Source: Candidatus Eiseniibacteriota bacterium (GTDB lineage: Bacteria > Arandabacterota > Arandabacteria > Arandabacterales > Arandabacteraceae). Taken from it: a stretch of 64,000 bases of DNA. Made by a program: the position numbers and the translations under genes. Positions 10,198-63,308 of the stretch are shown here, one piece after another (positions within the stretch are counted from its first letter, which is position 1; every line of letters begins with the position of its first letter). The DNA lies in contig JBDRNT010000037.1 in assembly GCA_043810925.1 (NCBI GenBank), forward strand, positions 1 through 64,000. Direction: 5' to 3'. Under the pieces are notes generated by a model. The model had not been told where the DNA came from. It ran no database searches and saw nothing but the letters and a program-made list of their open reading frames with translations.

Positions 10198-11613
10198 ATG
10201 GACATGAAACATGAAATGCGGCATGAGCTAAGACAGAAGCTGGTCATGACGCCCAAGCTGCAGCAGGCTATCAAACTGCTCCAGGTGCCTGCGCTTGAAC
10301 TCCAGCAGATACTCAAGGAAGAGTTGACCGTCAACCCGTTGCTCGAAGAGCCTGAAGACGGTGAGGATGAGGTCCAGGAAGAAGAGGTTCCTGATGACGA
10401 CGGTGAGGACGAAGGGGAGTTCAAGGCCAGCGAGGCGGAGATCGAGTGGGATCGCTATCTGAAGGACGGGTTCGAGATGGGCTCACGTGCCTCCGGAGAG
10501 AGGGAGGAGATCGAGGAAGGTTATGAGAGGGTTCCGGTCGTCAAGCACACGCTTGAAGACCATCTCATGTCCCAGCTGAGGATCGCCACGGATCTGGAAG
10601 AAAGCATCAAGATCGGGGAGTTCATAATAGGGAGTCTTGACAGAAACGGGTTCCTGACGATCTCAACCGAAGAGATTGCGCGCTTGCTGTCGGTGGATGA
10701 AGACGTGATCACCAGGGTCCATTCACTGATCAAGACCTTCGATCCACCCGGCATCGGTGCCGCAGATCTTCGCGAGTGTCTGATGATTCAGCTTTCCCAG
10801 GACGCGCTTGAAGACAGTCTTGCCTGGGTGCTTGTCAAGGATCATCTCGATGACTTCCTGCAGAAAAGATACCCGGACCTGGCACGCAGGCTCCACAAGA
10901 CCGTCGGGGAGGTGCAGACCGCCGCGGATGTGATTGCGAAGTACGATCCCCGTCCCGGCACGCGATACTCTTCCGATGAGCCACGCTACATCGTACCCGA
11001 TCTCGTGATTGAGAACGTCGAGGGCGAGTATATAGTGCAGCTCAATGACAGGAACGTACCACGACTGCGCATCAGTCGCGCATACAAAGACATACTGTCG
11101 AATGCGAAGTCGAGGACCAAGAAAGAGCGCGAATATGTTGTGGAAAAGCTGAATTCCGCCAGATGGCTCATAAGGACTATCGATCAGCGCAGAAGGACTA
11201 TGATAAAGGTGATGGAGGCCATACTTGAGGTCCAGAGAGAGTTCTTCGACAAGGGCGTGGAACACCTCAGACCGCTCACGTTGCAGCAGATCGCCGAGAG
11301 GGTGGATATGCATGAGTCCACGGTGAGCAGGGTCACCAACAGCAAGTATGTTCAGACCCCTAGGGGAGTGCTGGAACTCAAGTACTTCTTCTCGACGGGT
11401 CTCAGGTCCGATAACGGCGAAGTAGCGTCCTCGAAGATGATCAAAGCGAGGCTGTCCGAAGCGATCGAGAAGGAAGACAAGCATCGCCCTCTGAGTGATC
11501 AGGAGCTCGCCGACATGCTTAAACGGGAAGGCCTGAATGTAGCCCGCCGGACCGTGGCTAAGTACCGGGACCAGCTCGAAATACTTCCGGCCAGGATAAG
11601 GAAGCAGTATTAA
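10198..11613 (+). CDS. rpoN: RNA polymerase sigma-54 factor
   Basis: MTPKLQQAIKLLQ, HESTVSR, RpoN box ARRTVAKYR. Confidence 0.99.
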   Translation: MDMKHEMRHELRQKLVMTPKLQQAIKLLQVPALELQQILKEELTVNPLLEEPEDGEDEVQEEEVPDDDGEDEGEFKASEAEIEWDRYLKDGFEMGSRASGEREEIEEGYERVPVVKHTLEDHLMSQLRIATDLEESIKIGEFIIGSLDRNGFLTISTEEIARLLSVDEDVITRVHSLIKTFDPPGIGAADLRECLMIQLSQDALEDSLAWVLVKDHLDDFLQKRYPDLARRLHKTVGEVQTAADVIAKYDPRPGTRYSSDEPRYIVPDLVIENVEGEYIVQLNDRNVPRLRISRAYKDILSNAKSRTKKEREYVVEKLNSARWLIRTIDQRRRTMIKVMEAILEVQREFFDKGVEHLRPLTLQQIAERVDMHESTVSRVTNSKYVQTPRGVLELKYFFSTGLRSDNGEVASSKMIKARLSEAIEKEDKHRPLSDQELADMLKREGLNVARRTVAKYRDQLEILPARIRKQY

Positions 11614-23078: not shown

Positions 23079-23093
23079 TGGCACGGAACTTGC
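23079..23093 (+). promoter_or_regulatory. Sigma54 promoter TGGCACGGAACTTGC upstream of sprA
   Basis: Exact match to TGGCACG-N4-TTGC. Confidence 0.85.
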
Positions 23094-23133: not shown

Positions 23134-26100
23134 ATGCCGATGAAGCCGTACGTTGGACTGTGCATCTTACTGCTCGTTACTACCGCCGGGGTGTGCAGCG
23201 GGAGCGGGGATCTCGCACGGGCAATCGACCGTGAGCCGGGCGATCCGGCCGGTTTTGCGCCTTTGGGGATCTCGGGCTCGCTGAGATTCATGCCGTATTC
23301 GGTTCACGCGCACCTGCAGCCTGAAGTACCGGAGTTTGCCAGGAAACCAGTCCTTGAGCAAACCTACATGGAGATCCTGAGGGACCGGTGGTCAAAGGCC
23401 GGATCGGGACGGACGTTTGAGGAGAAGGGGATGTCGCTCGGGGACTTCAGCGAGATAGACATACCGGTCAAGTTCCCGGAGACGATAGGCAGGGTCATCG
23501 GCCAGGGAGCGAACCTGAGTGTTACGGGAAGTGAGCAGATCAGTTTCGGCGGCCAGAGCAGGTACCGTGTCAACGAGCCCCTGACCGAGTACGGCCACAG
23601 GTCGAAGTTCCCCACACTTGACATGAAGCAGCACCTCAAGATTGATCTCAAGGGGACTGTGGGTGAGAAGATCCACGTGATGGTGCATCACGACAGTGAG
23701 ATCGAGACACCGCTTGAGAACAGGATAAAGCTGCGCTACGAGGGTGATGACGACGAAATAGTGCAGAGCATAGAGATGGGTAACACCAACCTTACATTGC
23801 CCGGTTCTCAATTCGTCAGTTACAGCGGCAAGCAGGAGGGCCTCTTCGGTGCGAAGATGCTCGCAAAACTCGGTGCCCTCGATGTCACAGCGGTGGCGAG
23901 CAAGCAGGAGGGGAGGACATCGGGTGCACGTTTCGAGGCCGACGTGAAGGACTCGGTCCAAATCGATGACGACCAGTTCGTCAGAAACAAGTACTTCTTC
24001 ATGATACATCCTTTTCAGCTTAACCTCACCAAGAATTTCATCGACATAGAGGTCTACCTCGATGACGGCAACGGTCTTAACAACGACGCTGCGATCCACG
24101 CCTACGCCTTCATGGACCCGACGGACCCGGCGATACCTGATCCGGACGAGTGGAACGGCCTTGAATATGCTTTTGACGGTGACTTCGACGTACTGATGCC
24201 GAACACGGACTACGCCGTCGATCCCCTCACCGGTGAGATCTCACTGCTGAGGCCGCTTGGGCCCACACATACGCTGGCCGTGAAATACATTTACGCGAAT
24301 GCTTCGGATGTGGACACGGTTGGTGGGACCGTCCAGGACAGCCTTGCGCTCAAGATGATCAGACCGAGCGATGAGGAGATGAAGAACCGTTGGGACATAT
24401 GGCGGGAGGCGCTCAGGTTGGAACGGAAGAACGTGTATTCGCTCGGCAGGAGCTACATCTCGGAGGAAAAGGTAGAGGTCAGAATCTACCGGAAGGGGCC
24501 GGTCAATGAGGATATCCAGCGTGATTACGAATACTCGAAGATCCTCGGGATCGATCTTGCCGATGAAAACGGACTGATCGATCCCACAACCTGGGAGACG
24601 GATGGTTATGCCGACGGCGGTCGCGTAAACGGCGAGCTCGGTCTGTTGCTGTTCCCGGATCTCAGACCCTTTGACCCTGAGTTTGTGGTGAGCGCGCGGC
24701 CTGAGGCACTTGACAGTCTGAATAGAAACGGCCCCATATATGATGAACACTATACCAATCTCAGACCGATCAACAGCCTGTTCTACATGGTAGTCCGCTT
24801 CACAACCACCCAGACCACATTCAAGCTGGATCACATAAACATTCTTGAAAACAGTGAGGTCGTGACCCTGAATGGGCAACGGCTGACGCGGAATACCGAC
24901 TATGAGATCTACTATGATATCGGCCAGATAAGGTTCACGACCGAAGAGGCCACCGACCCGGATGCGAAGATCACGGTCGATTATCAGTACGTGCCTTTCC
25001 TTTCAATGGCCCAGCAGTCGCTGGTCGGTGTCCAGGGCATTTACCGCTTCGGGGAGCAATCGCATCTGGGTGCGGCCTGGCTCTACCAGAGCAAGAAGTC
25101 GCCCGAGGAGCGTCCGAGGCTCGGCCAGGAACCTTCGAGGATCATGATGGGTGATATCAACACCCAGGTTGCCTTAGCGCCGGACATCATGACCGCGCTC
25201 GTCGACGCGCTGCCCATGGTCGAGGCCGACAAGCCCTCGAAGCTGACGATGTCCGGGGAGCTCGGGATGAGCTTCCCCAATCCCAACACCAAGGGTGATG
25301 TCTACATAGATGACATGGAAGGTGTCAAAGACCTGAGGTCGTTTTCGATGTTGAGGGAGAGCTGGTTTCCTGCAAGTCCGCCGACCGGTCTGAGATGGGA
25401 GGATACCAGGAAGGTCTGGTGGTATGTCAGGGACAGAGAGGTGAAAGAGGAAGACCTCTTCGCGGAGGCGGAGTCAAGACCGGGTGAGGCGTATATACCT
25501 GTGCTTGAGATGAACTACAGGGGCGCAATGTACGACACGGTGTTTACGAACCCCGACGAGGAGTGGGGAGGTTTGATGCGGCTGGTATCCCGTAGCGGCA
25601 CTGACTACTCCGAGCTGAGATTCGTCGAGATCTGGCTGAGACAGAAACAGGGCCAAGCCGACAGCATGCATATCGATCTCGGTGCGGTCAATGAGAACTT
25701 CTACCGCCCATGGGACGCAGACGTGCTCAACACCGAAGACAAGGACAAGGACGGCCAGCTGAGCGTCGAAGAGAACACCGGGCTTGACGGCATACCTGAT
25801 GGAGTTCCGGGTGACGATCCCGACGACAACTGGAGCTACTCCGAAGGCGACTTCTCGCACATAAACGGCACCGAAGGCGATCCGAGGATAGTGCCCGATA
25901 CGGAGGATCTTGACGGTGACGGCAATCTCGACACCGATGACATCCATTTCAGGTTGTCCTTTGATCTCAATGATACGACGTATATCGTCAATGAGGCGAC
26001 CAAGGGCTGGCGACAGTACCGGATTCCGCTTGTCAGCGCCGATACGCTGGGGGGATCGCCGAGCTGGCGATCGATCAAGTACCTCAGGTTCTTCTTCACC

Positions 26101-28779
26101 GGTGTCGATTCGCAGGCAGTCTTCCAGATTGCCTACCTTCAGATCGCGGGAGCAAGCTGGCTTGAAGAGGGGATCCGGACCAAGGCGGACATGCTTCGGG
26201 CCGATGTTCCTCCTGAGGAGGCGTTCGAAATCTCGGCAAAGAACACGCGTGACGATCCCGACTACGATCCGCCCTATGATCCCGGCAAGGACCCCGAAGG
26301 ATACAGGAAAAGGGAACAGTCACTCGTTTTCAGTATGAGAAATCTCGGGGCCGGCAACTCCGGATCCGTCTACAGATTGATGCCCGGAAATGCAAGCAAT
26401 TACACTCTTTATCAAAGCATGGCCTTCTACACGCGTGCCGACGGGGCTGCATCGGCCGAATCACTATACCTGTTCGTGAGGATCGGGTCGGACAGCGTGA
26501 ACTTCTATGAATACGGCGTCCGGGCGGATTCCGCACATCAGAACCTGGGGTCCGACAGGCCCGGCTGGCAGAGCATCGAGATCCCGCTTGACGACATTAC
26601 CAATCTCAAGGGGAGCGATGACACGGTCAGAGTCGATCTCTACGGCAGTCCCAAGAAAGTGTTGTTCAGGGAGCGGCCCCTCGCGGGGGGAGACGGATGG
26701 ATTGCGGTCTACGGGGAACCTTCAATCACGAGGATATCAAGGATAGGAGCGGGGGTGGTCAACCGGCGTGGGGATGGTGTGGCTACAAGCTCAAGAGCCA
26801 TAGAGGTATGGTTTGACGATCTTCGTCTCACGGATGTGAGGAAAGACATCGGTTTTGCCAAGCGATTAAGCGTCGCCGCGTCCTTTTCCGACTTGATAAA
26901 CGTGAATGCGGATTACAGGAACACCGATACGGAGTTCCAGACGCTTTCAGGCGAACGGCGGGGGACTGACGATACGGACTACAGCATATCGGCTTCCACA
27001 TCGATTGACAGGTACCTTCCCGATACCGGAGTTTCGCTGCCGTTTTCCGTACGCTACCACAAGAGCCGGTCCCTGCCCACGCTTAAGAGCAATTCCGATA
27101 TCGCCCTCAAGCCGGAAGAGCGAAAGGAACAGGAGAGAAGCTCGGTTGATGATTCCTACAGGCTGGGTTTTTCGAGAAGAAGGAAGTCCAAGAACCTGTT
27201 GATGCGGCTGACGCTTGATGCCGTATCGGCGGGTGCAACCTATTCGAGGAAACGCGGGGTCTCGCCGGAGCTACTTGACAACAGCGACGGCTACTCCGGC
27301 AATTTGTCCTATAACTTCACCCCCTGGTGGAAGCACACGGTAAGGCTTTACAGAGGTTACATGATCTCATACATGCCGGAGAACGTAACCGTCAATGTCA
27401 CCGGCTCGACGAGAAACACCAAGAAAGTCAACAGACGGCGGGGTGTCACCACTGAGGACAAGTATACGAGGGACATCAATGGTGTATTCAACGTTGCTTT
27501 CAAGCCTTTTTCGGGAGGCGCATTCCAGACGGATTACAGCCTGAAGACCACCCGTGATCTTGATCTCTATAAGTACGTGCCGATAGCGAACAGTATTGGA
27601 TGGGGACGTGAGCTGACACGCAATCAGAGGGCAGGCCTTCGAATAACGCCCACCTTCGGAAAGTGGATGCGGCCGACCATGAGCTATGATGTCAGTTACG
27701 ATGAGAATGCGGATCCCAAGAACCGTGCTCAGGGTGATCCTATGGGCGTGCGGCGGGCTTCGGTTTCGAGCAGGTCGAAGATAGACATATTCCTGACGAT
27801 CGGGTCCATTTTTGCCGAACCGGTCAAGGGCAGCGATACGACCGGGGTGTCCTTGACCCGCCAGATACTGACCAGGATACCCGACCTGAACGTAAGCTAT
27901 GTACTTGACAGGAATTCCAAGTACAACAAGCTCCTGGGGCGCCCGGGGCTGAAGTACCAACTCGGCATCGACGCCGTGGCCAGCGATGACCTTGTTTACG
28001 TCTCCTCGTCGGGGGGAGGGCAGCGGGCCGACGACCAGACGCGGAAGAGCGGGCTGAGCGTCGGAACAGAGTTCGAGCCCGTACCGACCATATCGCTTGA
28101 TTCGAAATACAGATACGACAGATCGGACAAGACATATGTCGGCGGGAAGACATACAACGAGACCTCGGTCTGGCCCGACATCACAGGCAATATATCCTCG
28201 GTGGCGACCATGTCGCTCCTTGAGGGTGTCATGAAGAGTTCCTCAATCGCAATCGGCTACAAGGGGACTTCGCAGATTGACGGTAAGGGCACCTCGACCA
28301 AGACCAAGGAGGTGCACAAGTCGGAGTGGCTGCCGCTTGTCGGGTGGGATGCCACGTGGAACAACGGGGTGAGGACGACGTTCAATGTGAGACGTTCCAC
28401 CAGCGAAACCGAGAACCTGCTTGGCACACGCAGCGTACAGGAGACCAAGACAACGGCCATCAATCTTTCGGTACGGCATTCTTTCAGTGCGCCACAGGGA
28501 ATGTACATCCCCCTGGCAGGGAAAACTCTGAAGTTCAAGAGCAACCTCACCTTCACACTTGATCTCGACTATGAGTCCTCGCTGACCACAACCCCGACAT
28601 CGCGAAACAGGATAGACAAGAACACGCGGAAGTTCGGGATAGTCCCCAAGGCGACATACAGCTTCAGCAAGAACATCACGGGGTCCGCCAATGCGCGGTT
28701 CGAGCAGACCTCGGACCGCAAGCTCGGTCAGACCTGGAGGACCATCGGTATAAGCGCCTCCGTCCTCATCCGCTTCTAA
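23134..28779 (+). CDS. sprA: SprA/Sov-like outer-membrane protein (type IX secretion translocon family)
   Basis: Signal-like N-terminus; LENRIKLRYEGDDDEIVQSIEMGN and GLFG motifs typical of SprA; beta-strand-rich C-terminus ending in Phe; start 23134 or 23140, downstream of the sigma54 site. Confidence 0.82.
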   Translation: MPMKPYVGLCILLLVTTAGVCSGSGDLARAIDREPGDPAGFAPLGISGSLRFMPYSVHAHLQPEVPEFARKPVLEQTYMEILRDRWSKAGSGRTFEEKGMSLGDFSEIDIPVKFPETIGRVIGQGANLSVTGSEQISFGGQSRYRVNEPLTEYGHRSKFPTLDMKQHLKIDLKGTVGEKIHVMVHHDSEIETPLENRIKLRYEGDDDEIVQSIEMGNTNLTLPGSQFVSYSGKQEGLFGAKMLAKLGALDVTAVASKQEGRTSGARFEADVKDSVQIDDDQFVRNKYFFMIHPFQLNLTKNFIDIEVYLDDGNGLNNDAAIHAYAFMDPTDPAIPDPDEWNGLEYAFDGDFDVLMPNTDYAVDPLTGEISLLRPLGPTHTLAVKYIYANASDVDTVGGTVQDSLALKMIRPSDEEMKNRWDIWREALRLERKNVYSLGRSYISEEKVEVRIYRKGPVNEDIQRDYEYSKILGIDLADENGLIDPTTWETDGYADGGRVNGELGLLLFPDLRPFDPEFVVSARPEALDSLNRNGPIYDEHYTNLRPINSLFYMVVRFTTTQTTFKLDHINILENSEVVTLNGQRLTRNTDYEIYYDIGQIRFTTEEATDPDAKITVDYQYVPFLSMAQQSLVGVQGIYRFGEQSHLGAAWLYQSKKSPEERPRLGQEPSRIMMGDINTQVALAPDIMTALVDALPMVEADKPSKLTMSGELGMSFPNPNTKGDVYIDDMEGVKDLRSFSMLRESWFPASPPTGLRWEDTRKVWWYVRDREVKEEDLFAEAESRPGEAYIPVLEMNYRGAMYDTVFTNPDEEWGGLMRLVSRSGTDYSELRFVEIWLRQKQGQADSMHIDLGAVNENFYRPWDADVLNTEDKDKDGQLSVEENTGLDGIPDGVPGDDPDDNWSYSEGDFSHINGTEGDPRIVPDTEDLDGDGNLDTDDIHFRLSFDLNDTTYIVNEATKGWRQYRIPLVSADTLGGSPSWRSIKYLRFFFTGVDSQAVFQIAYLQIAGASWLEEGIRTKADMLRADVPPEEAFEISAKNTRDDPDYDPPYDPGKDPEGYRKREQSLVFSMRNLGAGNSGSVYRLMPGNASNYTLYQSMAFYTRADGAASAESLYLFVRIGSDSVNFYEYGVRADSAHQNLGSDRPGWQSIEIPLDDITNLKGSDDTVRVDLYGSPKKVLFRERPLAGGDGWIAVYGEPSITRISRIGAGVVNRRGDGVATSSRAIEVWFDDLRLTDVRKDIGFAKRLSVAASFSDLINVNADYRNTDTEFQTLSGERRGTDDTDYSISASTSIDRYLPDTGVSLPFSVRYHKSRSLPTLKSNSDIALKPEERKEQERSSVDDSYRLGFSRRRKSKNLLMRLTLDAVSAGATYSRKRGVSPELLDNSDGYSGNLSYNFTPWWKHTVRLYRGYMISYMPENVTVNVTGSTRNTKKVNRRRGVTTEDKYTRDINGVFNVAFKPFSGGAFQTDYSLKTTRDLDLYKYVPIANSIGWGRELTRNQRAGLRITPTFGKWMRPTMSYDVSYDENADPKNRAQGDPMGVRRASVSSRSKIDIFLTIGSIFAEPVKGSDTTGVSLTRQILTRIPDLNVSYVLDRNSKYNKLLGRPGLKYQLGIDAVASDDLVYVSSSGGGQRADDQTRKSGLSVGTEFEPVPTISLDSKYRYDRSDKTYVGGKTYNETSVWPDITGNISSVATMSLLEGVMKSSSIAIGYKGTSQIDGKGTSTKTKEVHKSEWLPLVGWDATWNNGVRTTFNVRRSTSETENLLGTRSVQETKTTAINLSVRHSFSAPQGMYIPLAGKTLKFKSNLTFTLDLDYESSLTTTPTSRNRIDKNTRKFGIVPKATYSFSKNITGSANARFEQTSDRKLGQTWRTIGISASVLIRF

Positions 28780-54913: not shown

Positions 54914-56665
54914 ATGAGGGAAGCAACTGACAGACTGCTAGGCCGCCTGCTGATAGTGGCAGCAGTCCTTGCGGGAGCCTCCCTGGTAGCACGTTACGGC
55001 TTCTATCTTCCCCAGGTCTATATCGGATACCTCAACGGCCTCGATGTCGGTATAATCTCCTTCTTCATCGCCGAGAACTTCCTGAGACTGCTCATAAGCA
55101 GGGAAAAGCTCGCTTATCTCAGGTCCCACTGGCTTGATTTCACTTTCATAGGACTGTTCTCAGCCCAGATAATTTCGCTGCGTTTCTTCTCCGAATCTGA
55201 GATGGTGGCCATCTTCCTTGCACGGCTCAGTATCGTATCCCTGACCAAGGCCTACATAGTCGCCGTCCAGGTCTATATCGGGGCGGCACTTTTCACCAAG
55301 ACGGTAGATGCCAACAGGGTGATTGCGCGCCTGAACCTGAGCGCCTCGCAGCTGGTGCTTTTGAGTTTTGCGTTTGCCATCAGTATCGGGACACTCCTGC
55401 TCCTGCTCCCACGGGCTACCACAACCGGTATCTCGATGCCGTTCATCGACGCCCTCTTCACCGCGGCTTCCGCCACATGCGTGACGGGCCTGATCGTGGT
55501 TGACACGGGGACTTACTTCTCGAGGTTCGGGCAAGGAATAATCCTGTTCCTGATCCAGCTCGGCGGCATCGGCATAATGAGTTTGGTGGCCTTCTCCGCA
55601 GTTGTGATGGGCCGGGGAATAGGTATGCGTCAGAGGGCGGTGATGAAGGACATCCTGAGTTCGGACTTGATAGGGGAGGTAACCGGACTCTTAAGAAACA
55701 TCGTATTGATAACCGGGCTCTGCGAGCTGGCAGGCGTACTGATACTGTCGCGACTCTGGGCTCGGGACTTCGCCTCCCCGTTTACCACATTCTACTACTC
55801 TCTCTTTCACTCGATATCAGCGTTCTGCAATGCGGGCTTCTCGCTGTTCATGGACAGTCTTGAAGGATTTGCGGGCAGGGTGGACGTTATCATGGTCTTT
55901 ATTGTCCTGATAGTCATCGGCGGCCTGGGCTTCACAGTCGTATCGAACCTGGCCTCCTGCCTGGTCAGCATCGCCAAGAGACGGAGAGCCGGGCCCAGAC
56001 TCAGTCTTCATTCAAGGATGGTCCTGGTTGCAACCGGTATTCTTTTGAGCTTCGGGACTCTTGCCTTCTATCTGTTCGAAGCGAACAAGTCGATAGCCTC
56101 TATGCCGGCAGCCCAGCGGATGCTGTCGGCGTTCTTCACCTCTGTCACCGCCAGAACCGCGGGGTTCAGCACCACTACGATGGGAGCGATAGCCACCCCC
56201 GGTGCGCTGATCGTCATACTTCTGATGTTCATAGGTGCCTCACCCGGAGGAACGGGAGGAGGGATCAAGACCAGTACGATAGCGGTCATGGTTGCAACAA
56301 TAAGATCGATCTTGAGGGGCAGGCCCAGCGTTGAGGTCTTCAAACGCGCGATTCCTCAGGACGTGGTCAATAAAGCCATCTGTGTGGTTATCCTGTCCCT
56401 TGGACTGATTCTCATCTCGGTGATCATCATCTCCGTTGCAGAGGAGCAACCACTTACCGAAGTCCTGTTCGAAAGCGTGTCGGCCTTTGGTACGGTGGGC
56501 CTTTCCCGGGGACTAACACGGGACTTGACTACAACAAGCAAGATAGTGATAATTCTTACAATGTTTTTTGGCAGGATCGGGCCCTTGACTCTTGGGCTGG
56601 CGATAAGACAGAGGATGCGTGATTCGTCTTACTCCTATCCTGCCGAAAGAGTGATGATAGGTTGA
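54914..56665 (+). CDS. TrkH/KtrB potassium uptake membrane subunit with N-terminal TM extension
   Basis: SATCVTGL, SAFCNAGF, ARTAGF, GTGGGIKT, SAFGTVGLS pore motifs. Confidence 0.93.
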   Translation: MREATDRLLGRLLIVAAVLAGASLVARYGFYLPQVYIGYLNGLDVGIISFFIAENFLRLLISREKLAYLRSHWLDFTFIGLFSAQIISLRFFSESEMVAIFLARLSIVSLTKAYIVAVQVYIGAALFTKTVDANRVIARLNLSASQLVLLSFAFAISIGTLLLLLPRATTTGISMPFIDALFTAASATCVTGLIVVDTGTYFSRFGQGIILFLIQLGGIGIMSLVAFSAVVMGRGIGMRQRAVMKDILSSDLIGEVTGLLRNIVLITGLCELAGVLILSRLWARDFASPFTTFYYSLFHSISAFCNAGFSLFMDSLEGFAGRVDVIMVFIVLIVIGGLGFTVVSNLASCLVSIAKRRRAGPRLSLHSRMVLVATGILLSFGTLAFYLFEANKSIASMPAAQRMLSAFFTSVTARTAGFSTTTMGAIATPGALIVILLMFIGASPGGTGGGIKTSTIAVMVATIRSILRGRPSVEVFKRAIPQDVVNKAICVVILSLGLILISVIIISVAEEQPLTEVLFESVSAFGTVGLSRGLTRDLTTTSKIVIILTMFFGRIGPLTLGLAIRQRMRDSSYSYPAERVMIG

Positions 56666-56680
56666 GAGGGGGATCTGGAT

Positions 56681-57325
56681 TTGCCAGGACGTACGAAGAA
56701 AACAGCGAAGGGAAAGCCAAGACCTGCCGGGAAGGCGACCAGAAAAGTGACCAAGAAGGTGGCGAAGAAAACGGCGAAAAAGGTGACCGGAAAGCCCGCC
56801 GGGAAAACAGCCCGGAAGATGGTCAAGAAGGCGACCCGGAAACCGCCCAAGAAGGTTGCAAAGCCGAAACGCCAAGCCCCTCCACCGGGTTCCGCCATGG
56901 AGGCCAAGCCCGGGGTAGGTGTTGCACCCAAGGAGTCGGTGAAGTCCCGCGTAATGCAGTCGAGAGCCAGGGTGGACGAACTCAGGTCCATGCTCGAAAC
57001 CAAGCGGGCTGAGATCTCAGACGAGATCAAAAAAGCACGAGAAGACAGTATGAAGAACGATCATACCAGCTTCCCCGAGGTGGGGGACCTCGTTTCTGCC
57101 TCGGTTGAGAAGGAAAGGGCCTTCGAACATGGGGAGGCCGGGGTCAATGCCCTGCGGGAAATCAACGCGGCCCTGGAGAAGCTTAAATCCGGCACCTACG
57201 GTATCTGTGAGATGTGCACCAAGGCCATAGGGGTTAAGAGACTTAAGGTGATGCCCTCGGCCCGGCTTTGCATCAAGTGCAAGTCGAAGGAGGAGTCTTC
57301 AGGAGGAGTCTCCACGGGCCGATGA
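56681..57325 (+). CDS. TraR/DksA C4 zinc-finger protein with Lys/Ala-rich N-terminus
   Basis: GTYGICEMC...RL.VMP.ARLCIKC. Confidence 0.88.
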   Translation: MPGRTKKTAKGKPRPAGKATRKVTKKVAKKTAKKVTGKPAGKTARKMVKKATRKPPKKVAKPKRQAPPPGSAMEAKPGVGVAPKESVKSRVMQSRARVDELRSMLETKRAEISDEIKKAREDSMKNDHTSFPEVGDLVSASVEKERAFEHGEAGVNALREINAALEKLKSGTYGICEMCTKAIGVKRLKVMPSARLCIKCKSKEESSGGVSTGR

Positions 57326-57339
57326 AGTAAATATGGAGA

Positions 57340-57368
57340 TTGACAAATCTCTATGAGTGCGCTATAGT
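57340..57368 (+). promoter_or_regulatory. Strong sigma70 promoter TTGACA-N17-TATAGT
   Basis: 11/12 consensus positions, ideal spacer; SD GGAGG at 57389-57393 follows. Confidence 0.8.
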
Positions 57369-57402
57369 AAGACATGAGGGCTATTAGCGGAGGCGCGTTG
57401 AT

Positions 57403-57702
57403 ATGACGCCTAGATGGCTCATGGCTTTTGCAGTTGTTCTTGCTCTGGCGTTCTGCGGAACTGCGCTTGCCGGACCAAAAGCTCACGACTGGGGTGACCC
57501 CGACATCTTCGAAGGCACAAAACCGAAGGGTCTGACTCCGCGCGAGCAAATATCCGGGGATGCCGGTCCAGCATTTATCGTGCTAGATGTCCCTATCTAT
57601 CATCGGTTCATCCAGGTCCAGCATGAGCACGGGCGAAAGCTTGATCCAGTACCAACAAGAAGGATTTCTGTTGCCTTGAGGAAGACCCGCGTAGGACGGT
57701 AA
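57403..57702 (+). CDS. Small secreted protein / candidate signalling pro-peptide (99 aa)
   Basis: Promoter and SD; Sec-type signal peptide ending A-L-A; mature N-terminus GPKAHDWGDPDIF. Confidence 0.75.
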   Translation: MTPRWLMAFAVVLALAFCGTALAGPKAHDWGDPDIFEGTKPKGLTPREQISGDAGPAFIVLDVPIYHRFIQVQHEHGRKLDPVPTRRISVALRKTRVGR

Positions 57703-57750
57703 TCTGGGCAGCAGACTTTTCACCCTTCAAGCTGGCGGGGAAAGGGTGAC

Positions 57751-60700
57751 ATGGATAAGGTACACGGCAACGGGCCGAGGGACAGAGATGGCCAAGATCG
57801 TAAGCGGCAGGGTATAACCACATCATTAGAAGATCTAGGAAACTTCTGCCTTGCCAGTGGGGAATTTACGACCGCCATCGAGTACTTCAGCAAGTTGCTG
57901 GCCGGCTGCAAGAGCTCGGAAGAATCCAGACCAAGACGTGCTTCCCTTCTTCGTAGACTTGCCACCTGCTACACCAAGATAGGCAAGTGTGACCACGCGC
58001 TGGAGCTGCTTGATAAAGCCTTTATGCTTGTGACGGATGACGAAGATCCTATAGAGCTGGCCCGTATCATCGGAGAGCGGGGATGGGTGCACTTCAAGCG
58101 GGGCGAGTATGATCTCTCCCAGGCTGATCTCGAATCCTGTCTCGATATCCTGCTCGGTGATGATAGAGGAAGGGCAATAGCCAGCACCTACAATCGTCTG
58201 GGCAGTGTACTGGCAAGAAAGGGAGAGGTCGAAAGCGCGTTGGACCTCTTCCAGGCCGCTCTTTCGGCAGCCAGACTGATCAAGGACCCGGAGCTCACAG
58301 GCAACTGTCTGAACAACCTTGGTCTTGTCTGCAAGTACCTGGGCCGCTGGTCGCAATCCCAGACCTACCACGAGGAAGCGCTCAGTCTTGCCGATGAGGT
58401 GGGGCAGCACATGGAGAAGGGTCTGCGTCTGAGCAACCTCGGGATCATTTACTCCAAACGCGGTTACCTGAAGAAAGCATATAGATGTTGGACTGAGGCC
58501 ATGAGCATTCTTGTCCACATTGGCAACGTGTGGGACGTGGCATCGGTCCGTTTGGCACTTGGTCATTACCACCTGACGTTTCACCAGTATGCCGAGGCGG
58601 AAGAATTCTTCGCTTGTGCGATGAAGGAGAGCTCGGAAAACGGTGATGCGCGTACACTGGCATTGAGTCTCGAAGCCATGGGCGACCTCCATTTCACTTG
58701 TGGCCGGATTGAGTCTGCTCATCGCTGCTATCTTGAGTCCCTTGAGCTCGCAGAAGAGATAGCGCCTCATGGTGACCTCGTCGCCGAGGTCAAGCGGAGA
58801 CTTGCGGATGTTGAGGTCAGCCGGGGCAGCTACGAGGTAGGCATGCAGCTTGCCGGTGAGGCTCTCGAGGTGGCGCAGGGCATACGAGACGTCTTCGAGC
58901 AGGGTTGCGCGCAGCGGTCCAAGGCTTGTGCGGAGTTCCATCTCGGGGAGTGGGAGGTGGCCAGGGTCAGCTTCAACAAGTCCATCGACCTTCTGTCAGC
59001 CATCGGCGACCGGAAGGAACTGGCGATGACGTATCTGAAGTCCGGTGATCTGCTCGCCACGCAGCCGGCTTCATGCGACACGGCAAGATCCCATTTGACC
59101 CAGGCTTTGTCGATCTTCGAGGATCTGGAGATGTCATACGAAGCCGGGCTGTCCGCTTTGTGGCTCGGTCGTGTTGCCGCGACGTGTGGAGATGTTGAGA
59201 GCTGTCACGGACTGTTGGACAGAGTGGCGGCCATTTTTGATGGCGACATGCCGGGTGAGATACGTGATGAGATCGGCAGGATCGAGCGGGAAGCCGACGA
59301 GCGTGTGTCATGTTTGTCCGTAAGTGAGAGCAACGGGCTGGCCAGCTTCAACTCAATCGTGGGTAGGGTGCTCACTGCTCGCGGTCAGGCTGAAAAGCTG
59401 GACATAATCCTCGATTCGTGTGTTTGTGAGACTGGGGCGACCAGAGGGTTGATTCTTTCCGGCCACAACGGCGGGCTCAAACTCCTGGCAAGCAAGAATG
59501 TGGATGGTGACGACGGTAACGGTGTTGTGTCCGCTGTAGATGAGCTGTTGATGATGACCGAGGCCTCTGAGAGACCGGTGGTCAGCACCAGCATCCGTAA
59601 GGATGGGAGATTCCGTGATGTCGTTGCGACTCAGTCTCTGGACGGTGCGGTGCTGTGTGTGCCGCTGGTGCTGAATGACGAGGGACCGGGCTGCATATAT
59701 CTGGACAGCAAAGAGGATGGACAGTTTTTCACCAGAAGCGATGTCGAATTCGTTGTTGCGCTGACGGGTATCCTCAAGAGCGTGTTATCGGAGGCGAAGC
59801 TCGGCAGGTATGTTGAGGAAACACGGTACCTGCGCAGCAATCTTGAGAAGGCACGCCGTTTCCAGGGCATGATAACTCAGAACAGGAAGATGCTGGAGGT
59901 GATGGAAGCCGTCGAATTCCTCTGCCGGACGTCCACCACGGTCCTCATTGAGGGTGAGACGGGCACAGGCAAGGAGATGCTGGCGCGGGCGATTCATTCC
60001 AGCGGTGACAGGAAGGACAAGCCTTTTGTGACGATAGACTGTTCCGCGCTTTCCAATGAGCTCCTCGAGAGTGAGCTTTTCGGGCACATAAGGGGCGCAT
60101 TCACGGATGCAAAGACAAACAAGACGGGTCTTTTCGAGTCGGCTGACGGAGGGACCGTCTTCCTGGACGAGGTGGGCAAGACCTCAAGGAAGTTCCAGGA
60201 GCGGCTGCTCCAGGTTGTCGACAAGAGGGAGTTCAAGCCGGTCGGTTCTACACAGTCCCGGAAAGCCGACTTCCGGCTGATCTGTGCGACCAACCGGGAT
60301 ATGAGTAACGAGGTCGCCTCAGGTCGATTCATGGAGGATCTCTACTACAGGCTCAAGGTGATTTCCTTAAGACTGCCGCCCCTGCGCGAGAGGCGGGACG
60401 ATATCCCGCTGTTGGCGGAGCACTTCCTCGGTGTGTATTGCGGCAAGATGGGCAAGGCCGTGGTTGGGTTCTCGGCCCCTGCGATGGATCTCCTCGTGAG
60501 TTACTCCTGGGCGGGTAATGTGAGACAACTGGAGCACGAGGTCGAAAGGGCGGTCACCTTTGCCGGTGACGGAGACCTGATCACACCTGATCTCTTCTCC
60601 GATGAGTTGTCCGAGTGGGGCAGCGTAGTCACCACCGATCGCACACGGCCGATGGCGGAGGCCGTCCAGCAGATCGAGAGACAGATGATAAAAGAGGCGA

Positions 60701-60801
60701 TGCGCCGCTTTAGCGGTAACAAGACCAGAGCTGCCAAGAGCCTTGGTTTGAGTAGACGCGGTCTTCTTAATAAAATTCAGCGTTACCACCTCAGATCGTA
60801 A
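57751..60801 (+). CDS. Sigma54-dependent enhancer-binding protein: TPR array, GAF, AAA+, Fis-type HTH
   Basis: About 12 TPR-like repeats of ~40 aa; GETGTGKE, ESELFGH..GAFTDA, FLDEV, DLYYRL, WAGNVRQL, GNKTRAAKSLGLSR. Confidence 0.95.
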   Translation: MDKVHGNGPRDRDGQDRKRQGITTSLEDLGNFCLASGEFTTAIEYFSKLLAGCKSSEESRPRRASLLRRLATCYTKIGKCDHALELLDKAFMLVTDDEDPIELARIIGERGWVHFKRGEYDLSQADLESCLDILLGDDRGRAIASTYNRLGSVLARKGEVESALDLFQAALSAARLIKDPELTGNCLNNLGLVCKYLGRWSQSQTYHEEALSLADEVGQHMEKGLRLSNLGIIYSKRGYLKKAYRCWTEAMSILVHIGNVWDVASVRLALGHYHLTFHQYAEAEEFFACAMKESSENGDARTLALSLEAMGDLHFTCGRIESAHRCYLESLELAEEIAPHGDLVAEVKRRLADVEVSRGSYEVGMQLAGEALEVAQGIRDVFEQGCAQRSKACAEFHLGEWEVARVSFNKSIDLLSAIGDRKELAMTYLKSGDLLATQPASCDTARSHLTQALSIFEDLEMSYEAGLSALWLGRVAATCGDVESCHGLLDRVAAIFDGDMPGEIRDEIGRIEREADERVSCLSVSESNGLASFNSIVGRVLTARGQAEKLDIILDSCVCETGATRGLILSGHNGGLKLLASKNVDGDDGNGVVSAVDELLMMTEASERPVVSTSIRKDGRFRDVVATQSLDGAVLCVPLVLNDEGPGCIYLDSKEDGQFFTRSDVEFVVALTGILKSVLSEAKLGRYVEETRYLRSNLEKARRFQGMITQNRKMLEVMEAVEFLCRTSTTVLIEGETGTGKEMLARAIHSSGDRKDKPFVTIDCSALSNELLESELFGHIRGAFTDAKTNKTGLFESADGGTVFLDEVGKTSRKFQERLLQVVDKREFKPVGSTQSRKADFRLICATNRDMSNEVASGRFMEDLYYRLKVISLRLPPLRERRDDIPLLAEHFLGVYCGKMGKAVVGFSAPAMDLLVSYSWAGNVRQLEHEVERAVTFAGDGDLITPDLFSDELSEWGSVVTTDRTRPMAEAVQQIERQMIKEAMRRFSGNKTRAAKSLGLSRRGLLNKIQRYHLRS

Positions 60802-60900
60802 AGCAACTTCGCGACCCGACCGTAACCAAACTTCTCACTGAAAACCCTTTGTTTGCAGGGCTTGCGGCACAGCTTTGAAAAGTCGTAAACTTGCTTCACA
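60797..60900. promoter_or_regulatory. Three 17-bp imperfect palindromes, candidate upstream activator sites
   Basis: CGTAAAGCAACTTCGCG (60797), CGTAACCAAACTTCTCA (60821), CGTAAACTTGCTTCACA (60884). Confidence 0.55.
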
Positions 60901-61013
60901 GGTTCCCGTCGGCCTCCGTATGCCGCCTCCGCTCACCGGATCGGATCGACCCGATATCCACTTGGTTTTAAAGCAGATAAATAGGGATATGATATAGCGG
61001 TCTGAATACACAG

Positions 61014-61028
61014 CGGCACGGAACTTGC
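61014..61028 (+). promoter_or_regulatory. Sigma54 promoter CGGCACGGAACTTGC upstream of the alternative sigma factor
   Basis: YGGCACG-N4-TTGC; GGCACGGAACTTGCC is identical to the sprA site. Confidence 0.82.
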
Positions 61029-61134
61029 CCTACCTTAGATGCGGGTACAATAAGCCTCTCGTCTCTCAAGCAGGCAATGTATCTGTTGGATAGCGTGAGA
61101 GCTTCTGGACGGTACCCACGGATTGGGTGAAGCG

Positions 61135-62076
61135 ATGTTGCGCCAAGACCTCATTGATGAGGGTGAATGTAATTCGCCCTTTAGCCAGTACCTGACGGGT
61201 CACAGCTCTCCCCGCCAGCGCCGGCCTGAGCAGAAGCCGGACAAGTCGGGTGAGAGTCTCTCAGCATATCTAAGGGCGATAAGCAGGATCCCGCTCTTAA
61301 CGAGAGAAGAAGAGCAGGACCTGGCCCGGCGGGTCCGGAGAGGGGACGTGACGGCCAAGGAACGAATGGTGCTGGCCAACCTGAGGCTGGTTATCTCAAT
61401 AGCCCGGAGGTATCAGGGGATGGGTCTTCCGCTGGCCGATCTTATCGGTGAAGGGAATCTTGGTTTGATAAAGGCCGTAGACCGGTTCAAGCACGAGAAA
61501 GGCTACAGGTTCAGTACGTATGCGTCCAAGTGGATCAGGCAGGCCGTGACCAAGACACTTGCCACCGATAGCAGAACGGTCCGGCTTCCGGCCAATGTGA
61601 TAGAGATCATCCGCAAGGTCAGAGCGACCGAGGAGACCCTTCTGCAGAACCGGAGGGAAGAACCGGCCGAGCAGGAAGTATGCAACAGGGTCGGGGTTTC
61701 ATCCTCACGATATGCTCAGGTCACCAATGCGTCATCGACGGTTTCGCTTGATTCGCCCTGTTCTCCCGATGGGGATGTCTCACTCCATGAGGTTCTTGCG
61801 GATACATCCGAAAGTCCCCCGGATGACATCGCCTTCCGGCGAATCGACAATACCAAGCTGGGTGAGCTTCTCGACAGGCTTTCGAAACGGGAAAGGAGGA
61901 TTCTCTCCTACCGTTTCGGGCTTGAGGACGGCAATCTCAGGTCGCTTGCCGAAACCGGCAAGATGGTGGGTATTACACGTGAGAGGATTAGACAGATCGA
62001 GAAGAGAGCCATTGAGAAAATGAGAAGAATGATGAAGAAGAGGAGGATGCGTAAGGTCCTAATGCAAGGTAAGTAG
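61135..62076 (+). CDS. Alternative sigma70-family factor (RpoD/RpoS-like, no region 1.1)
   Basis: YLRAISRIPLLT, ANLRLVISIARRY, RFSTYA, TRERIRQIE; start 61123 (TTG) or 61135. Confidence 0.93.
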   Translation: MLRQDLIDEGECNSPFSQYLTGHSSPRQRRPEQKPDKSGESLSAYLRAISRIPLLTREEEQDLARRVRRGDVTAKERMVLANLRLVISIARRYQGMGLPLADLIGEGNLGLIKAVDRFKHEKGYRFSTYASKWIRQAVTKTLATDSRTVRLPANVIEIIRKVRATEETLLQNRREEPAEQEVCNRVGVSSSRYAQVTNASSTVSLDSPCSPDGDVSLHEVLADTSESPPDDIAFRRIDNTKLGELLDRLSKRERRILSYRFGLEDGNLRSLAETGKMVGITRERIRQIEKRAIEKMRRMMKKRRMRKVLMQGK

Positions 62077-62138
62077 CCTTCTCTCCGGATTGTGCCTTCG
62101 TTTGTCCCCGCGGCGAGGGCACAATCTCTTTCATACGG

Positions 62139-62167
62139 TTGACTTTGGTCCGGGCAGTGCCTAGTAT
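62139..62167 (+). promoter_or_regulatory. Sigma70 promoter TTGACT-N17-TAGTAT
   Basis: Followed by SD GGAGG 62174-62178 and ATG 62187. Confidence 0.6.
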
Positions 62168-62186
62168 TTCACTGGAGGCCAGGCCC

Positions 62187-63308
62187 ATGTGTGATATGAA
62201 GAGACGTGAATTCCTGCAGGCGGTATCCGTGGGGACATGCGGCCTGCTTGGGGCCTCGGTTGTCCCAAGCGTCGCGCTGGGCGCCGACGAACGGTACCTT
62301 AAGGAAGCACGGTTCTATGAGGCACTGCCGGAAAAGAAGGTTCGTTGCCTCGTCTGCCCGAGGCAATGTGTGGTCGGCGATGGGCAGCGGGGCTACTGCA
62401 GGGTCAGAGAGAACATCGACGGGAAGTACTACTCGCTTGTCTTCGGCAGGGTCTGCGCCTACCACATAGACCCGATAGAGAAGAAACCACTGTTTCACTT
62501 TTTGCCTGGTACGACGGCTTTCTCAGTAGCAGCGGTTGGGTGTAACCTTGCGTGCAAGTTCTGCCAGAACTGGGAGATCTCACAGGCCAAACCGGAGGAT
62601 GTCGAAGCCACGGACCTCCCGCCTGCCAAACTCGCGGATGCAGCAACCAGGTACGGCTCCCCGACAATGGCGTATACCTACACCGAGCCTATCGTCTACT
62701 GTGAGTACGTCATGGCGAGCGCGCGGGAGGGACATGAAAGAGGCATCAGGAGCGTCATGATATCGGCGGGCTACATGAATGGTGAGACGATGCGCGAGCT
62801 GGCCGGTGCGATGGATGCCATAAAGATAGACCTTAAGGCCCACAGTGATGATTTCTATAAGAACATCTGCTCGGCAAGTCTCGCCCCGGTCCTCAAGACC
62901 ATTTCGGGAATAAAGAAGAGCGGCACATGGCTTGAAATAGTAAATCTCATCATCCCTACCCTGAATGACGATGACGAGCAGATAGAGAGCCTCTCCAAGT
63001 GGCTGCTCGACAATGTGGGTGACGAAGTCCCTGTGCATTTCACACGCTTTCACCCGACCTACAAACTCAAGAACCTTCCCCAGACACAGGTCTCATCCGT
63101 GGAGCGGGCCCGCGAAATCGCGATGGCCCAGGGCCTCAAGTATGCTTATGTCGGTAATGTGCCGGCAGGTCATCCGGGTGAGCACACCTATTGCCCGGGA
63201 TGTGGCAAGGCAGTCGTGAAGAGAACGGGTTACGCGGTTCTGTCCATCGACCTCGAAAACGGGAAGTGCTCCGCGTGTGGCACGGTCATCCCCGGTGTAT
63301 GGTCCTAG
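62187..63308 (+). CDS. amrS: AmmeMemoRadiSam system radical SAM enzyme with twin-arginine-like leader
   Basis: CLVCPRQC..G.C.VR, DPIEKKPLFHF, GCNLACKFCQNW, YTYTEP, YVGNV, TYCPGC. Confidence 0.88.
   Translation: MCDMKRREFLQAVSVGTCGLLGASVVPSVALGADERYLKEARFYEALPEKKVRCLVCPRQCVVGDGQRGYCRVRENIDGKYYSLVFGRVCAYHIDPIEKKPLFHFLPGTTAFSVAAVGCNLACKFCQNWEISQAKPEDVEATDLPPAKLADAATRYGSPTMAYTYTEPIVYCEYVMASAREGHERGIRSVMISAGYMNGETMRELAGAMDAIKIDLKAHSDDFYKNICSASLAPVLKTISGIKKSGTWLEIVNLIIPTLNDDDEQIESLSKWLLDNVGDEVPVHFTRFHPTYKLKNLPQTQVSSVERAREIAMAQGLKYAYVGNVPAGHPGEHTYCPGCGKAVVKRTGYAVLSIDLENGKCSACGTVIPGVWS

Follow-up and report, generated by a model that had tools for sequence, protein, structure and literature searches.

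A predicted exported small protein paired with a TPR-containing sigma-54 activator in Candidatus Eisenbacteria: a candidate input to a sigma-factor cascade

Introduction

Peptide-signalling systems of the RRNPP type (Rap-Phr, NprR-NprX, PlcR-PapR, PrgX and AimR-AimP) place the gene of an exported protein of at most 100 residues beside that of a cytoplasmic tetratricopeptide repeat (TPR) receptor with a DNA-binding output. Most of their signals come from the C-terminus of the propeptide, and the mature peptide is re-imported by Opp. To our knowledge, receptors of this kind, which sense secreted peptides in the cytoplasm through TPRs, have been described only in Bacillota and their phages. A gene pair of the same outline occurs in a 64,000-nucleotide stretch of DNA from a Candidatus Eiseniibacteriota bacterium (assembly GCA_043810925.1, contig JBDRNT010000037.1, positions 1 to 64,000 of the forward strand; hereafter the window), in which an open reading frame (ORF) for a 99-residue protein with a putative export signal, here called the small protein, directly precedes the gene of a 1016-residue sigma-54 activator with an N-terminal TPR superhelix, followed in turn by a sigma-factor gene.

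The resemblance to RRNPP systems extends to the TPR array, whose profile matches NprR chains (E value of 1e-9), to the pattern of a fast-evolving gene in the place of the signal and a slowly evolving one in the place of the receptor, and to the existence of paralogous pairs with motif variants of their own. A five-criteria signature of these systems includes a propeptide of 10-100 residues, a receptor of 250-500 residues whose TPRs recognise the mature peptide, and neighbouring genes for the two (accessible text of PMC10075063); the small protein has 99 residues, and its gene stands 48 nucleotides from that of the activator, on the same strand, in a conserved arrangement. Several features set the pair apart from the described systems, however: the activator includes a sigma-54 AAA+ motor and a GAF-like domain, the host is a member of a diderm candidate phylum, the small protein has its conserved motif at the N-terminus of the mature chain, and Opp was not found in the genome. 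The tool built to find RRNPP pairs considers only receptors of 250-500 residues and was run on Firmicutes and viral genomes (accessible text of PMC10075063). In the RRNPP literature searched, that text included, nothing is reported outside Firmicutes and viruses, supplementary candidates lying outside the search.

The downstream part of the locus has a precedent in Borrelia burgdorferi, where the enhancer-binding protein Rrp2 and sigma-54 directly switch on an RpoS-like sigma gene (PMC2940757, PMC3037356). An alternative sigma gene driven by sigma-54 is common to both, but Rrp2 is a response regulator activated by phosphorylation of its receiver, whereas the activator described here combines TPRs with a GAF-like region and has no receiver; moreover, the abstracts of PMC2940757 and PMC3037356 describe no paired small exported protein. 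With NifA, NorR and FhlA the activator shares the order GAF, AAA+, HTH_8, and it differs from them in the 540-residue TPR superhelix that precedes the GAF-like region, in a contact loop that reads GAFTDA rather than GAFTGA, and in missing the NifA cut-off. Among the papers listed in the literature searches, none described in its title or abstract a sigma-54 activator fused to TPRs, and none showed a TPR input coupled to a small exported protein, supplementary files being outside the search. An earlier note, written from the letters of this DNA, knew of no described system of this overall form; its sigma-54-to-sigma-factor cascade is preceded by that of Borrelia, while the paired TPR input is indeed absent from the literature searched. 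What would be new is thus the joining of RRNPP logic to a NifA-like sigma-54 activator.

The features of the cassette are as follows.

57340..57368, + strand: sigma-70-type promoter TTGACA-17-TATAGT of the bicistron of small ORF and activator; 11/12 consensus positions
57403..57702, + strand: predicted exported small protein, 99 aa; ORF conserved in relatives
57403-57471, + strand: signal peptide of the small protein, residues 1-23; read by eye
~57490-57513, + strand: G31-D32-x-D34-I35 within WGDPDIFE of the small protein; invariant motif
57720..57749, + strand: hairpin TCACCCTT ... AAGGGTGA over the Shine-Dalgarno region of the activator; RNAfold
57751..60801, + strand: sigma-54 enhancer-binding protein (the activator), 1016 aa; Pfam, NCBIfam, AlphaFold2
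57826-59370, + strand: TPR superhelix of the activator, residues ~26-540; Pfam, AlphaFold2
59398-59772, + strand: GAF-like region of the activator, residues 550-674; Pfam matches below cut-off
59869-60369, + strand: AAA+ domain of the activator, residues 707-873; Sigma54_activat
60667-60786, + strand: HTH_8 of the activator, residues 973-1012; Pfam
60798..60812, no strand: putative upstream activator site 1, GTAAAGCAACTTCGC, overlapping the activator stop codon; conserved motif
60822..60836, no strand: degenerate third palindrome copy, GTAACCAAACTTCTC; direct repeat D1, 76% identical to site 1
60885..60899, no strand: putative upstream activator site 2, GTAAACTTGCTTCAC, 87 nt from site 1; exact match to the strict pattern
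61015..61028, + strand: predicted sigma-54 promoter GGCACGGAACTTGC, with the -24 GG at 61015-61016 and the -12 GC at 61027-61028; pattern, conserved position
61029..61134, + strand: leader of the sigma gene, ~100 nt, with conserved box AGCCTCTCGTCTCTC (61053-61067) and a hairpin; inverted repeat I4
61135..62076, + strand: group-2-like sigma factor of the sigma-70 family; regions 1.2, 2, 3, 4

Results

The small ORF accompanies every orthologous activator with sufficient upstream DNA

The features from which the earlier note had argued are present in the window as described, including the 99-residue secreted-type ORF 48 bp before the activator (with an export signal read by eye), and relatives show that they are not there by chance. 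Each of the other 17 genomes of the phylum has an orthologue of the activator, full-length or split between contigs and 43-91% identical, which makes 18/18 with the host; after these 18 Eisenbacteria, the next genomes of the collection are related at domain level only. A small ORF encoding G-D-x-D stands directly 5' of the activator at 16/16 genome loci with enough upstream DNA, loci L012 and L017 being cut by contig ends (L012 retains the C-terminal part of the small ORF), and the same holds for 15/15 metagenome contigs that reach far enough upstream and have at least 49% identity. Another three metagenome contigs start too near to the activator gene or inside it, and two distant matches (22-24% identity) have no small ORF. 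The activator orthologue of L012 (G015:C386) contains one in-frame TAA, a sequencing error or the mark of a broken gene.

Outside this collection the two proteins have a similarly restricted distribution. About 44 clusters share at least 48% identity with the TPR region, those with names bearing only generic ones, and its relatives in named records are metagenome-assembled genomes, several of them Candidatus Eisenbacteria. A profile of the small-protein family recovered 35 representatives among 1.84 billion proteins, all of 78-122 residues, so that the two families appear, on these searches, about equally narrow. The small protein itself matched no family in Pfam or NCBIfam and gave no usable match in the ESM Atlas.

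The earlier note had proposed looking for a small signal-peptide ORF beside homologous activators, and one is present at every examinable orthologous, paralogous and second-lineage locus (see below). Because the adjacency persists although the activators share only ~32% identity, a functional tie between the two genes is indicated, and the reading of small ORF and activator as a cognate pair is well supported by these comparisons. The cassette is best explained as a dedicated, phylum-wide regulatory unit.

A fast-evolving small protein with an invariant motif behind its predicted signal peptide

By eye, the N-terminus of the small protein shows the n, h and c regions of a signal peptide (MTPRW, a hydrophobic run, then ALA|GP). 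Consistent with this reading, AlphaFold2 predicts a helix at residues 3-22 with a predicted local distance difference test (pLDDT) score of 94, the remainder scoring 51-68, which fits a disordered mature protein, a shallow alignment being the alternative cause of the low values. Conservation is concentrated in the signal peptide, the A-G-P at its end and the motif G31-D32-x-D34-I35, which begins ~8 residues into the mature chain and in which G31, D32 and D34 are invariant in 37 sequences; the C-terminus is weakly conserved (R-L-P-x-x-S ... R). In class-level Eisenbacteria the small proteins end in GDW...WLQG, an aromatic-hydrophobic helix with a basic tail that resembles the versions of the second lineage described below. 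The length of the ORF is nearly constant, at ~94-101 residues, at family and order level, while its identity drops to 25-30% where the TPR region retains 58-67%. The ratio of non-synonymous to synonymous substitution rates is 0.17-0.43 for the small ORF vs 0.05-0.14 for the TPR region, on the strength of which the small ORF can be taken for a real, fast-evolving gene under purifying selection.

The near-consensus sigma-70 promoter reported by the earlier note stands up to comparison. It agrees with the consensus at 11 of 12 positions, and a promoter with 10-11/12 matches lies 55-65 nt 5' of the small ORF in 13/15 orthologous loci, the other two belonging to class-level relatives; the region holds five promoter-like sites vs 2.5 ± 1.4 in shuffles. 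Since the small ORF thus lies behind a conserved sigma-70 promoter and not a sigma-54 one, it would be co-expressed with the activator and would not be the activator's output.

Architecture of the activator

The earlier note's account of the activator as a 1016-residue protein with TPRs, an intact AAA+ core and a helix-turn-helix (HTH) but no receiver is borne out, with ~13 repeats by model. Pfam recognizes TPR_12 and related repeats, Sigma54_activat (PF00158, residues 707-873, E value of 2e-64), AAA_lid_14 and HTH_8 (E value of 5e-13), and no receiver domain was found in the Pfam scan. Walker A (GETGTGK) and Walker B (FLDEV) are intact, and both, together with the sigma-54 contact loop GAFTDA, a variant of GAFTGA, are kept in 13/13 orthologues. 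The protein thus has what defines an enhancer-binding protein: an AAA+ core with its loop, an HTH (for which DNA binding is predicted) with palindromes and a -24/-12 promoter beside it, and rpoN in the genome. The GAF-like region of the earlier note is less secure. Its GAF matches remain under the Pfam cut-offs (GAF_2, 25.7 bits vs 28.6), but the NifA model TIGR01817 does align over residues 537-960, with 324 bits vs a cut-off of 529.

Residues 1-540 are modelled by AlphaFold2 as 26 helices forming ~13 TPR-like repeats (pLDDT of 89.5, predicted template modelling score of 0.85). By sequence, the closest solved chains are Pins/LGN (E value of 4e-36) and KLC1 (5e-19), with NprR (1e-9) further down; by fold, the top Foldseek matches are TONSOKU in complex with the H3 tail, LGN with peptides and OGT. 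The TPRs of Pins/LGN, kinesin light chain (KLC), NprR, TONSOKU and OGT hold extended peptides in a concave channel, and the array of the activator is predicted to be of the peptide-binding LGN/Pins/KLC type. LGN/Pins and KLC, of the TPR_12 class, provide its best sequence matches and are among the best by fold, but they are eukaryotic scaffolds without a transcription output. KLC binds tryptophan-acidic motifs, which resemble the W-G-D-P-D of the small protein and the P-W-D-x-D of the second lineage. The asparagine-bearing units YNRLG, LNNLG and LSNLG, which the earlier note had offered as evidence of peptide binding, are ordinary TPR_12 consensus and, while they fit such a function, are not specific to it; N148, N189 and N229 are invariant.

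Palindromes, a sigma-54 promoter and a sigma gene follow the activator

A GTRAA-N5-TTYAC palindrome (at most 1 mismatch) overlaps or abuts the activator stop codon in 16/16 loci, against 0.01-0.045 per locus in shuffles, and a second such site follows at a spacing of 86-89 nt in 11/11 family-level loci. In the window the strict pattern has two matches vs 0.12 expected. Of the three repeated palindromes in the earlier note, two are clear 15-bp imperfect palindromes; the third is only degenerate and not their equal. In the orthologous sequences a semi-conserved TGTAACC...TTC element can be seen by eye. Binding of the activator to the palindromes is strongly suggested by this conservation.

The -24/-12 promoter of the earlier note is present as well, and its support comes from its position. 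On the window alone the sigma-54 pattern is not significant (seven matches with at most 1 mismatch vs 4.0 ± 2.1 expected), but a GG-N10-GC promoter occupies the same place in 16/16 orthologous intergenic regions, a count obtained with a pattern widened after the sequences had been read; the strict pattern gives 7/16. An exact integration host factor site (WATCAA-N4-TTR) occurs in 6/16 loci and is absent from this window, and none is claimed. Sigma-54 itself is encoded 46 kb upstream:

10198..11613, + strand: rpoN (sigma-54); Sigma54_DBD PF04552, 207 bits at 11131-11604, in a 471-aa open frame

The host genome contains 224 loose sigma-54-like sites, and because only the one at 61015-61028 is preceded, within 300 nt, by the activator-site motif, the activator looks dedicated to the sigma gene; with moderate confidence, the sigma gene would be its single target. 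An identical 14-mer GGCACGGAACTTGC occurs at 23080-23093 (+), ~40 nt before an ORF at 23134-28779 that encodes a 1881-residue SprA-like protein of the type IX secretion translocon (PF14349, E value of 1e-24). This promoter was considered as a second target of the activator and rejected, no activator-site motif being present upstream of it.

The sigma ORF is open from a TTG at 61123, with a probable ATG start at 61135, and ends at 62076. The RpoD/RpoS-like assignment of the earlier note holds as to regions 1.2, 2, 3 and 4, while the protein scores under both the RpoS model (TIGR02394, 254 bits vs a cut-off of 379) and the RpoD model (NF006666, 263 bits vs 572). A 597-residue frame elsewhere in the genome is probably the primary sigma factor, and the genome also encodes a 304-residue sigma paralogue. 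In the leader of the sigma gene the box AGCC(T/C)CTCGTC is kept across family-level relatives, with a hairpin after it; the leader matches no Rfam family, and box and hairpin may control translation of the sigma factor. A scan of positions 56500-62300 against Rfam returned only a chance snoRNA match (E value of 0.43).

The sigma gene lies 3' of the activator in all 16 loci with downstream DNA. Taken in sequence, the downstream half proposed by the earlier note, from activator through its sites and the sigma-54 promoter to the sigma gene, has strong comparative support, with rpoN present, and we consider a cascade of this kind highly probable.

Paralogous pairs and a second lineage

All six paralogous TPR activators of ~1000 residues are likewise preceded by a small ORF, each with its own variant of the motif. 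In the same genome, a second pair (C71; L086 542-3796, - strand) comprises a 96-residue signal-peptide ORF 21 nt before a 980-residue TPR sigma-54 activator, and its small protein carries W-H-G-D-P-D-E-F-E. Glycosyltransferase and flippase-like genes lie beside this pair in divergent orientation, and there is no sigma gene after it; the counterpart of the pair in genome G006 has the motif S-G-D-P-D-E-F-Q. Two more paralogue classes, found in class-level genomes, show S-G-D-H-D-I-Y-Q and G-G-G-D-E-L-E-S. In one paralogue class (G016:C28 and G017:C6; L041 1616 and L042 1624, + strand) a sigma-54 promoter, TGGCATGACAGTTGCA, with 1 mismatch, lies ~400 nt before the small ORF, which suggests that this pair is itself driven by sigma-54 and possibly autoregulated. 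A further relative in the host genome (C162; L046 202-5250, + strand) is a 1682-residue protein whose TPR-to-HTH part matches residues 59-1009 of the activator at 28% identity; its N-terminus is Ser/Thr kinase-like by eye, and a gene for a 249-residue AAA+-like fragment lies downstream. No small ORF was found before it in the 201 nt of upstream sequence that the contig holds.

In a second lineage, related to the first at domain level only, a TPR activator of ~985 residues is present in 41/41 genomes, and a signal-peptide ORF of 79-136 residues lies 24-151 nt 5' of it in 20/20 loci examined. Right after the signal peptide these small proteins carry P-[W/F]-D-x-D, with P and both D residues invariant over the 20 loci; the fuller pattern (L087-L106, G036 and relatives) is E-x-P-W-D-x-D, an acidic Gly/Ser-rich linker, a C-terminal aromatic-hydrophobic helix and a basic tail.

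Discussion

A proposed peptide-signal route

The most likely mechanism would run as follows. The conserved sigma-70 promoter would give a joint transcript for the Sec-exported, largely disordered small protein and for the cytoplasmic TPR-GAF-AAA+-HTH activator. The activator would bind the two GTRAA-N5-TTYAC palindromes that start at its own stop codon and, with sigma-54, open the -24/-12 promoter of one target, the group-2-like sigma gene, whose product would redirect transcription. In this scheme the TPR sensor would have the small protein as its cognate signal or partner: once exported, the small protein would be cut to a fragment with the invariant aromatic-G-D-P-D-I-x-E motif and re-imported, the OPT transporter being a candidate route; bound in the concave channel of the TPRs, the fragment would govern how the AAA+ ring assembles. 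The strength of the proposal differs along its length. That small protein and activator are functional partners, by whatever route, is probable on the comparative evidence, and a contact between the small protein and the TPRs is moderately suggested. The complete chain we hold to be possible, though somewhat short of probable. Re-import of a fragment of the small protein is weakly suggested, and a re-imported peptide as the route is put forward only tentatively. That Eisenbacteria and a second diderm lineage both use peptide-signal and receptor pairs, in which an acidic tryptophan/aromatic-G-D-x-D peptide from a disordered exported precursor is read in the cytoplasm by a TPR-sigma-54 AAA+ fusion and paralogues form separate dialects, is a rather doubtful generalization.

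Several observations weigh against a peptide that returns to the cytoplasm. As the activator lacks a membrane segment, a return path would be required for the small protein once it has been exported. The Opp binding protein (PF00496), and with it the re-import step of RRNPP systems, was not found in the host genome, which is 92% complete, and PF00496 is present in only 6/18 genomes of the phylum; PTR2 was not found in the host genome either. The one peptide importer found, an OPT oligopeptide transporter, is present in the host and in 18/18 phylum genomes, and its presence is permissive only, marking a possible route. The activator, at 1016 residues, exceeds the 250-500 residues of RRNPP receptors, and the invariant motif is N-terminal within the mature small protein. 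That the motif variants follow the paralogues is no proof of specificity, as linked genes diverge together. A profile comparison between the small proteins of the two lineages aligned only their signal peptides, with a probability of 61%, and homology of the two families is accordingly not claimed. The actual sensor could instead be the GAF-like domain, and a hairpin over the ribosome-binding site of the activator, described below, points to control in cis. Co-folding of TPR residues 1-540 (19-row alignment) with residues 24-99 of the small protein gave a score of 0.00 in a run without controls, which speaks neither for nor against binding.

Alternative explanations

The conserved adjacency might reflect co-transcription alone, the small protein being an envelope protein and the activator sensing a small molecule through its GAF-like domain, with the TPRs self-associating or binding another cytoplasmic partner. 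The GAF-like region and the alignment of the NifA model over residues 537-960 would suit such an arrangement, as would a genome in which neither an Opp nor a PTR2 importer was found. The GAF scores, however, lie under the Pfam cut-offs, and three of the four paralogous and second-lineage activators scanned have no GAF match at E <= 0.001; the small ORF shares the sigma-70 promoter of the activator rather than using a sigma-54 one, and adjacency kept at all loci examined, although the activators have only ~32% identity, speaks for a functional tie. We consider a mere envelope protein unlikely. A tie that dispenses with re-import would exist if the TPRs bound the unexported precursor of the small protein, or a form retained in the membrane, so that the output reports on export or envelope stress by the logic of FlgM or PspA. 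No importer is then needed, in keeping with the missing Opp; both genes have one promoter, the mature part is predicted to be disordered with its invariant motif just behind the signal peptide, and the aromatic-hydrophobic helix and basic tail at the C-termini of class-level and second-lineage small proteins could serve to anchor them in the membrane, the end facing the cytoplasm. The family-level small proteins, on the other hand, have by hand estimate no hydrophobic C-terminal segment able to span a membrane, the invariant motif would be periplasmic after export, and we know of no precedent for a Sec precursor as the ligand of a sigma-54 activator. Such a sensor of secretion appears distinctly improbable.

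The small ORF might alternatively act in cis, as a secretion-monitoring leader of the SecM, MifM or VemP type whose translation or export opens a hairpin, its peptide not being a signal at all. In those systems, too, an ORF with an export signal lies 5' of the regulated gene and a hairpin covers the ribosome-binding site of that gene. Here a signal-peptide ORF of near-constant length stands directly 5' of the activator, and RNAfold predicts that TCACCCTT (57720-57727) pairs with AAGGGTGA (57742-57749), the ribosome-binding site of the activator. Among the 20 orthologous loci folded, both arms of this Shine-Dalgarno-sequestering hairpin occur in 18/18 at family and order level, the 5' arm being shortened in three, and are absent from the two at class level; the arm sequences are nearly invariant and so lend no covariation support. 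No such hairpin was seen in the 5 paralogous and 11 second-lineage loci examined, which nevertheless, like the class-level loci, retain the small ORF and its motif. The 5' arm begins at least 17 nt past the stop codon of the small ORF, which, given the footprint of a stalled ribosome, places it outside the reach of a terminating or stalled one. The arrest motifs of secretion monitors act at the C-terminus, whereas the invariant residues here adjoin the signal peptide: neither a C-terminal arrest motif nor a hairpin arm within the stalled-ribosome footprint was found. Because the hairpin is missing outside the family and order and its 5' arm lies so far past the stop codon, a SecM-like role is ranked low, and we regard it as very improbable.

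Neighbouring genes

Upstream of the cassette lies a gene that extends the run of four genes in one direction, with the small ORF, the activator and the sigma gene:

56681..57325, + strand: DksA-like zinc-finger protein with a Lys-rich N-terminal extension, conserved upstream neighbour; zf-dskA_traR, E value of 1.4e-10

Its product scores 82.8 bits on the DksA_like model vs a cut-off of 105, and the gene occupies the same place in 13/13 family- and order-level loci with upstream DNA and in 0/2 class-level ones. The N-terminal extension (56681-57000; relatives L002 and L004) is rich in Lys and Arg, consists of repeats like K-K-T-A-R-K and varies in length among relatives, whose proteins range from 193 to 300 residues. 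After the sigma gene, positions 62139-63308 (+) encode a radical SAM enzyme whose N-terminus is twin-arginine-like, and fragments of a radical SAM gene also lie 3' of the sigma gene in L006 and L009.

Implications

The cassette is present throughout a candidate phylum, recurs in paralogues and has a counterpart in a second lineage, and it represents a defined circuit from unculturable organisms that could be rebuilt in E. coli. Even if the small protein acts by another route, its obligatory pairing with a sigma-54 activator would be an undescribed design of input. Should the small protein prove to be the input, RRNPP-type peptide signalling would extend to diderm bacteria, wired there to sigma-54 and a sigma-factor switch; it would be the first RRNPP-style cytoplasmic peptide sensing in diderms and the first with an ATP-driven sigma-54 output. 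The paralogous pairs would then be dialects of one such system, one leading to a sigma factor and another lying beside exopolysaccharide genes.

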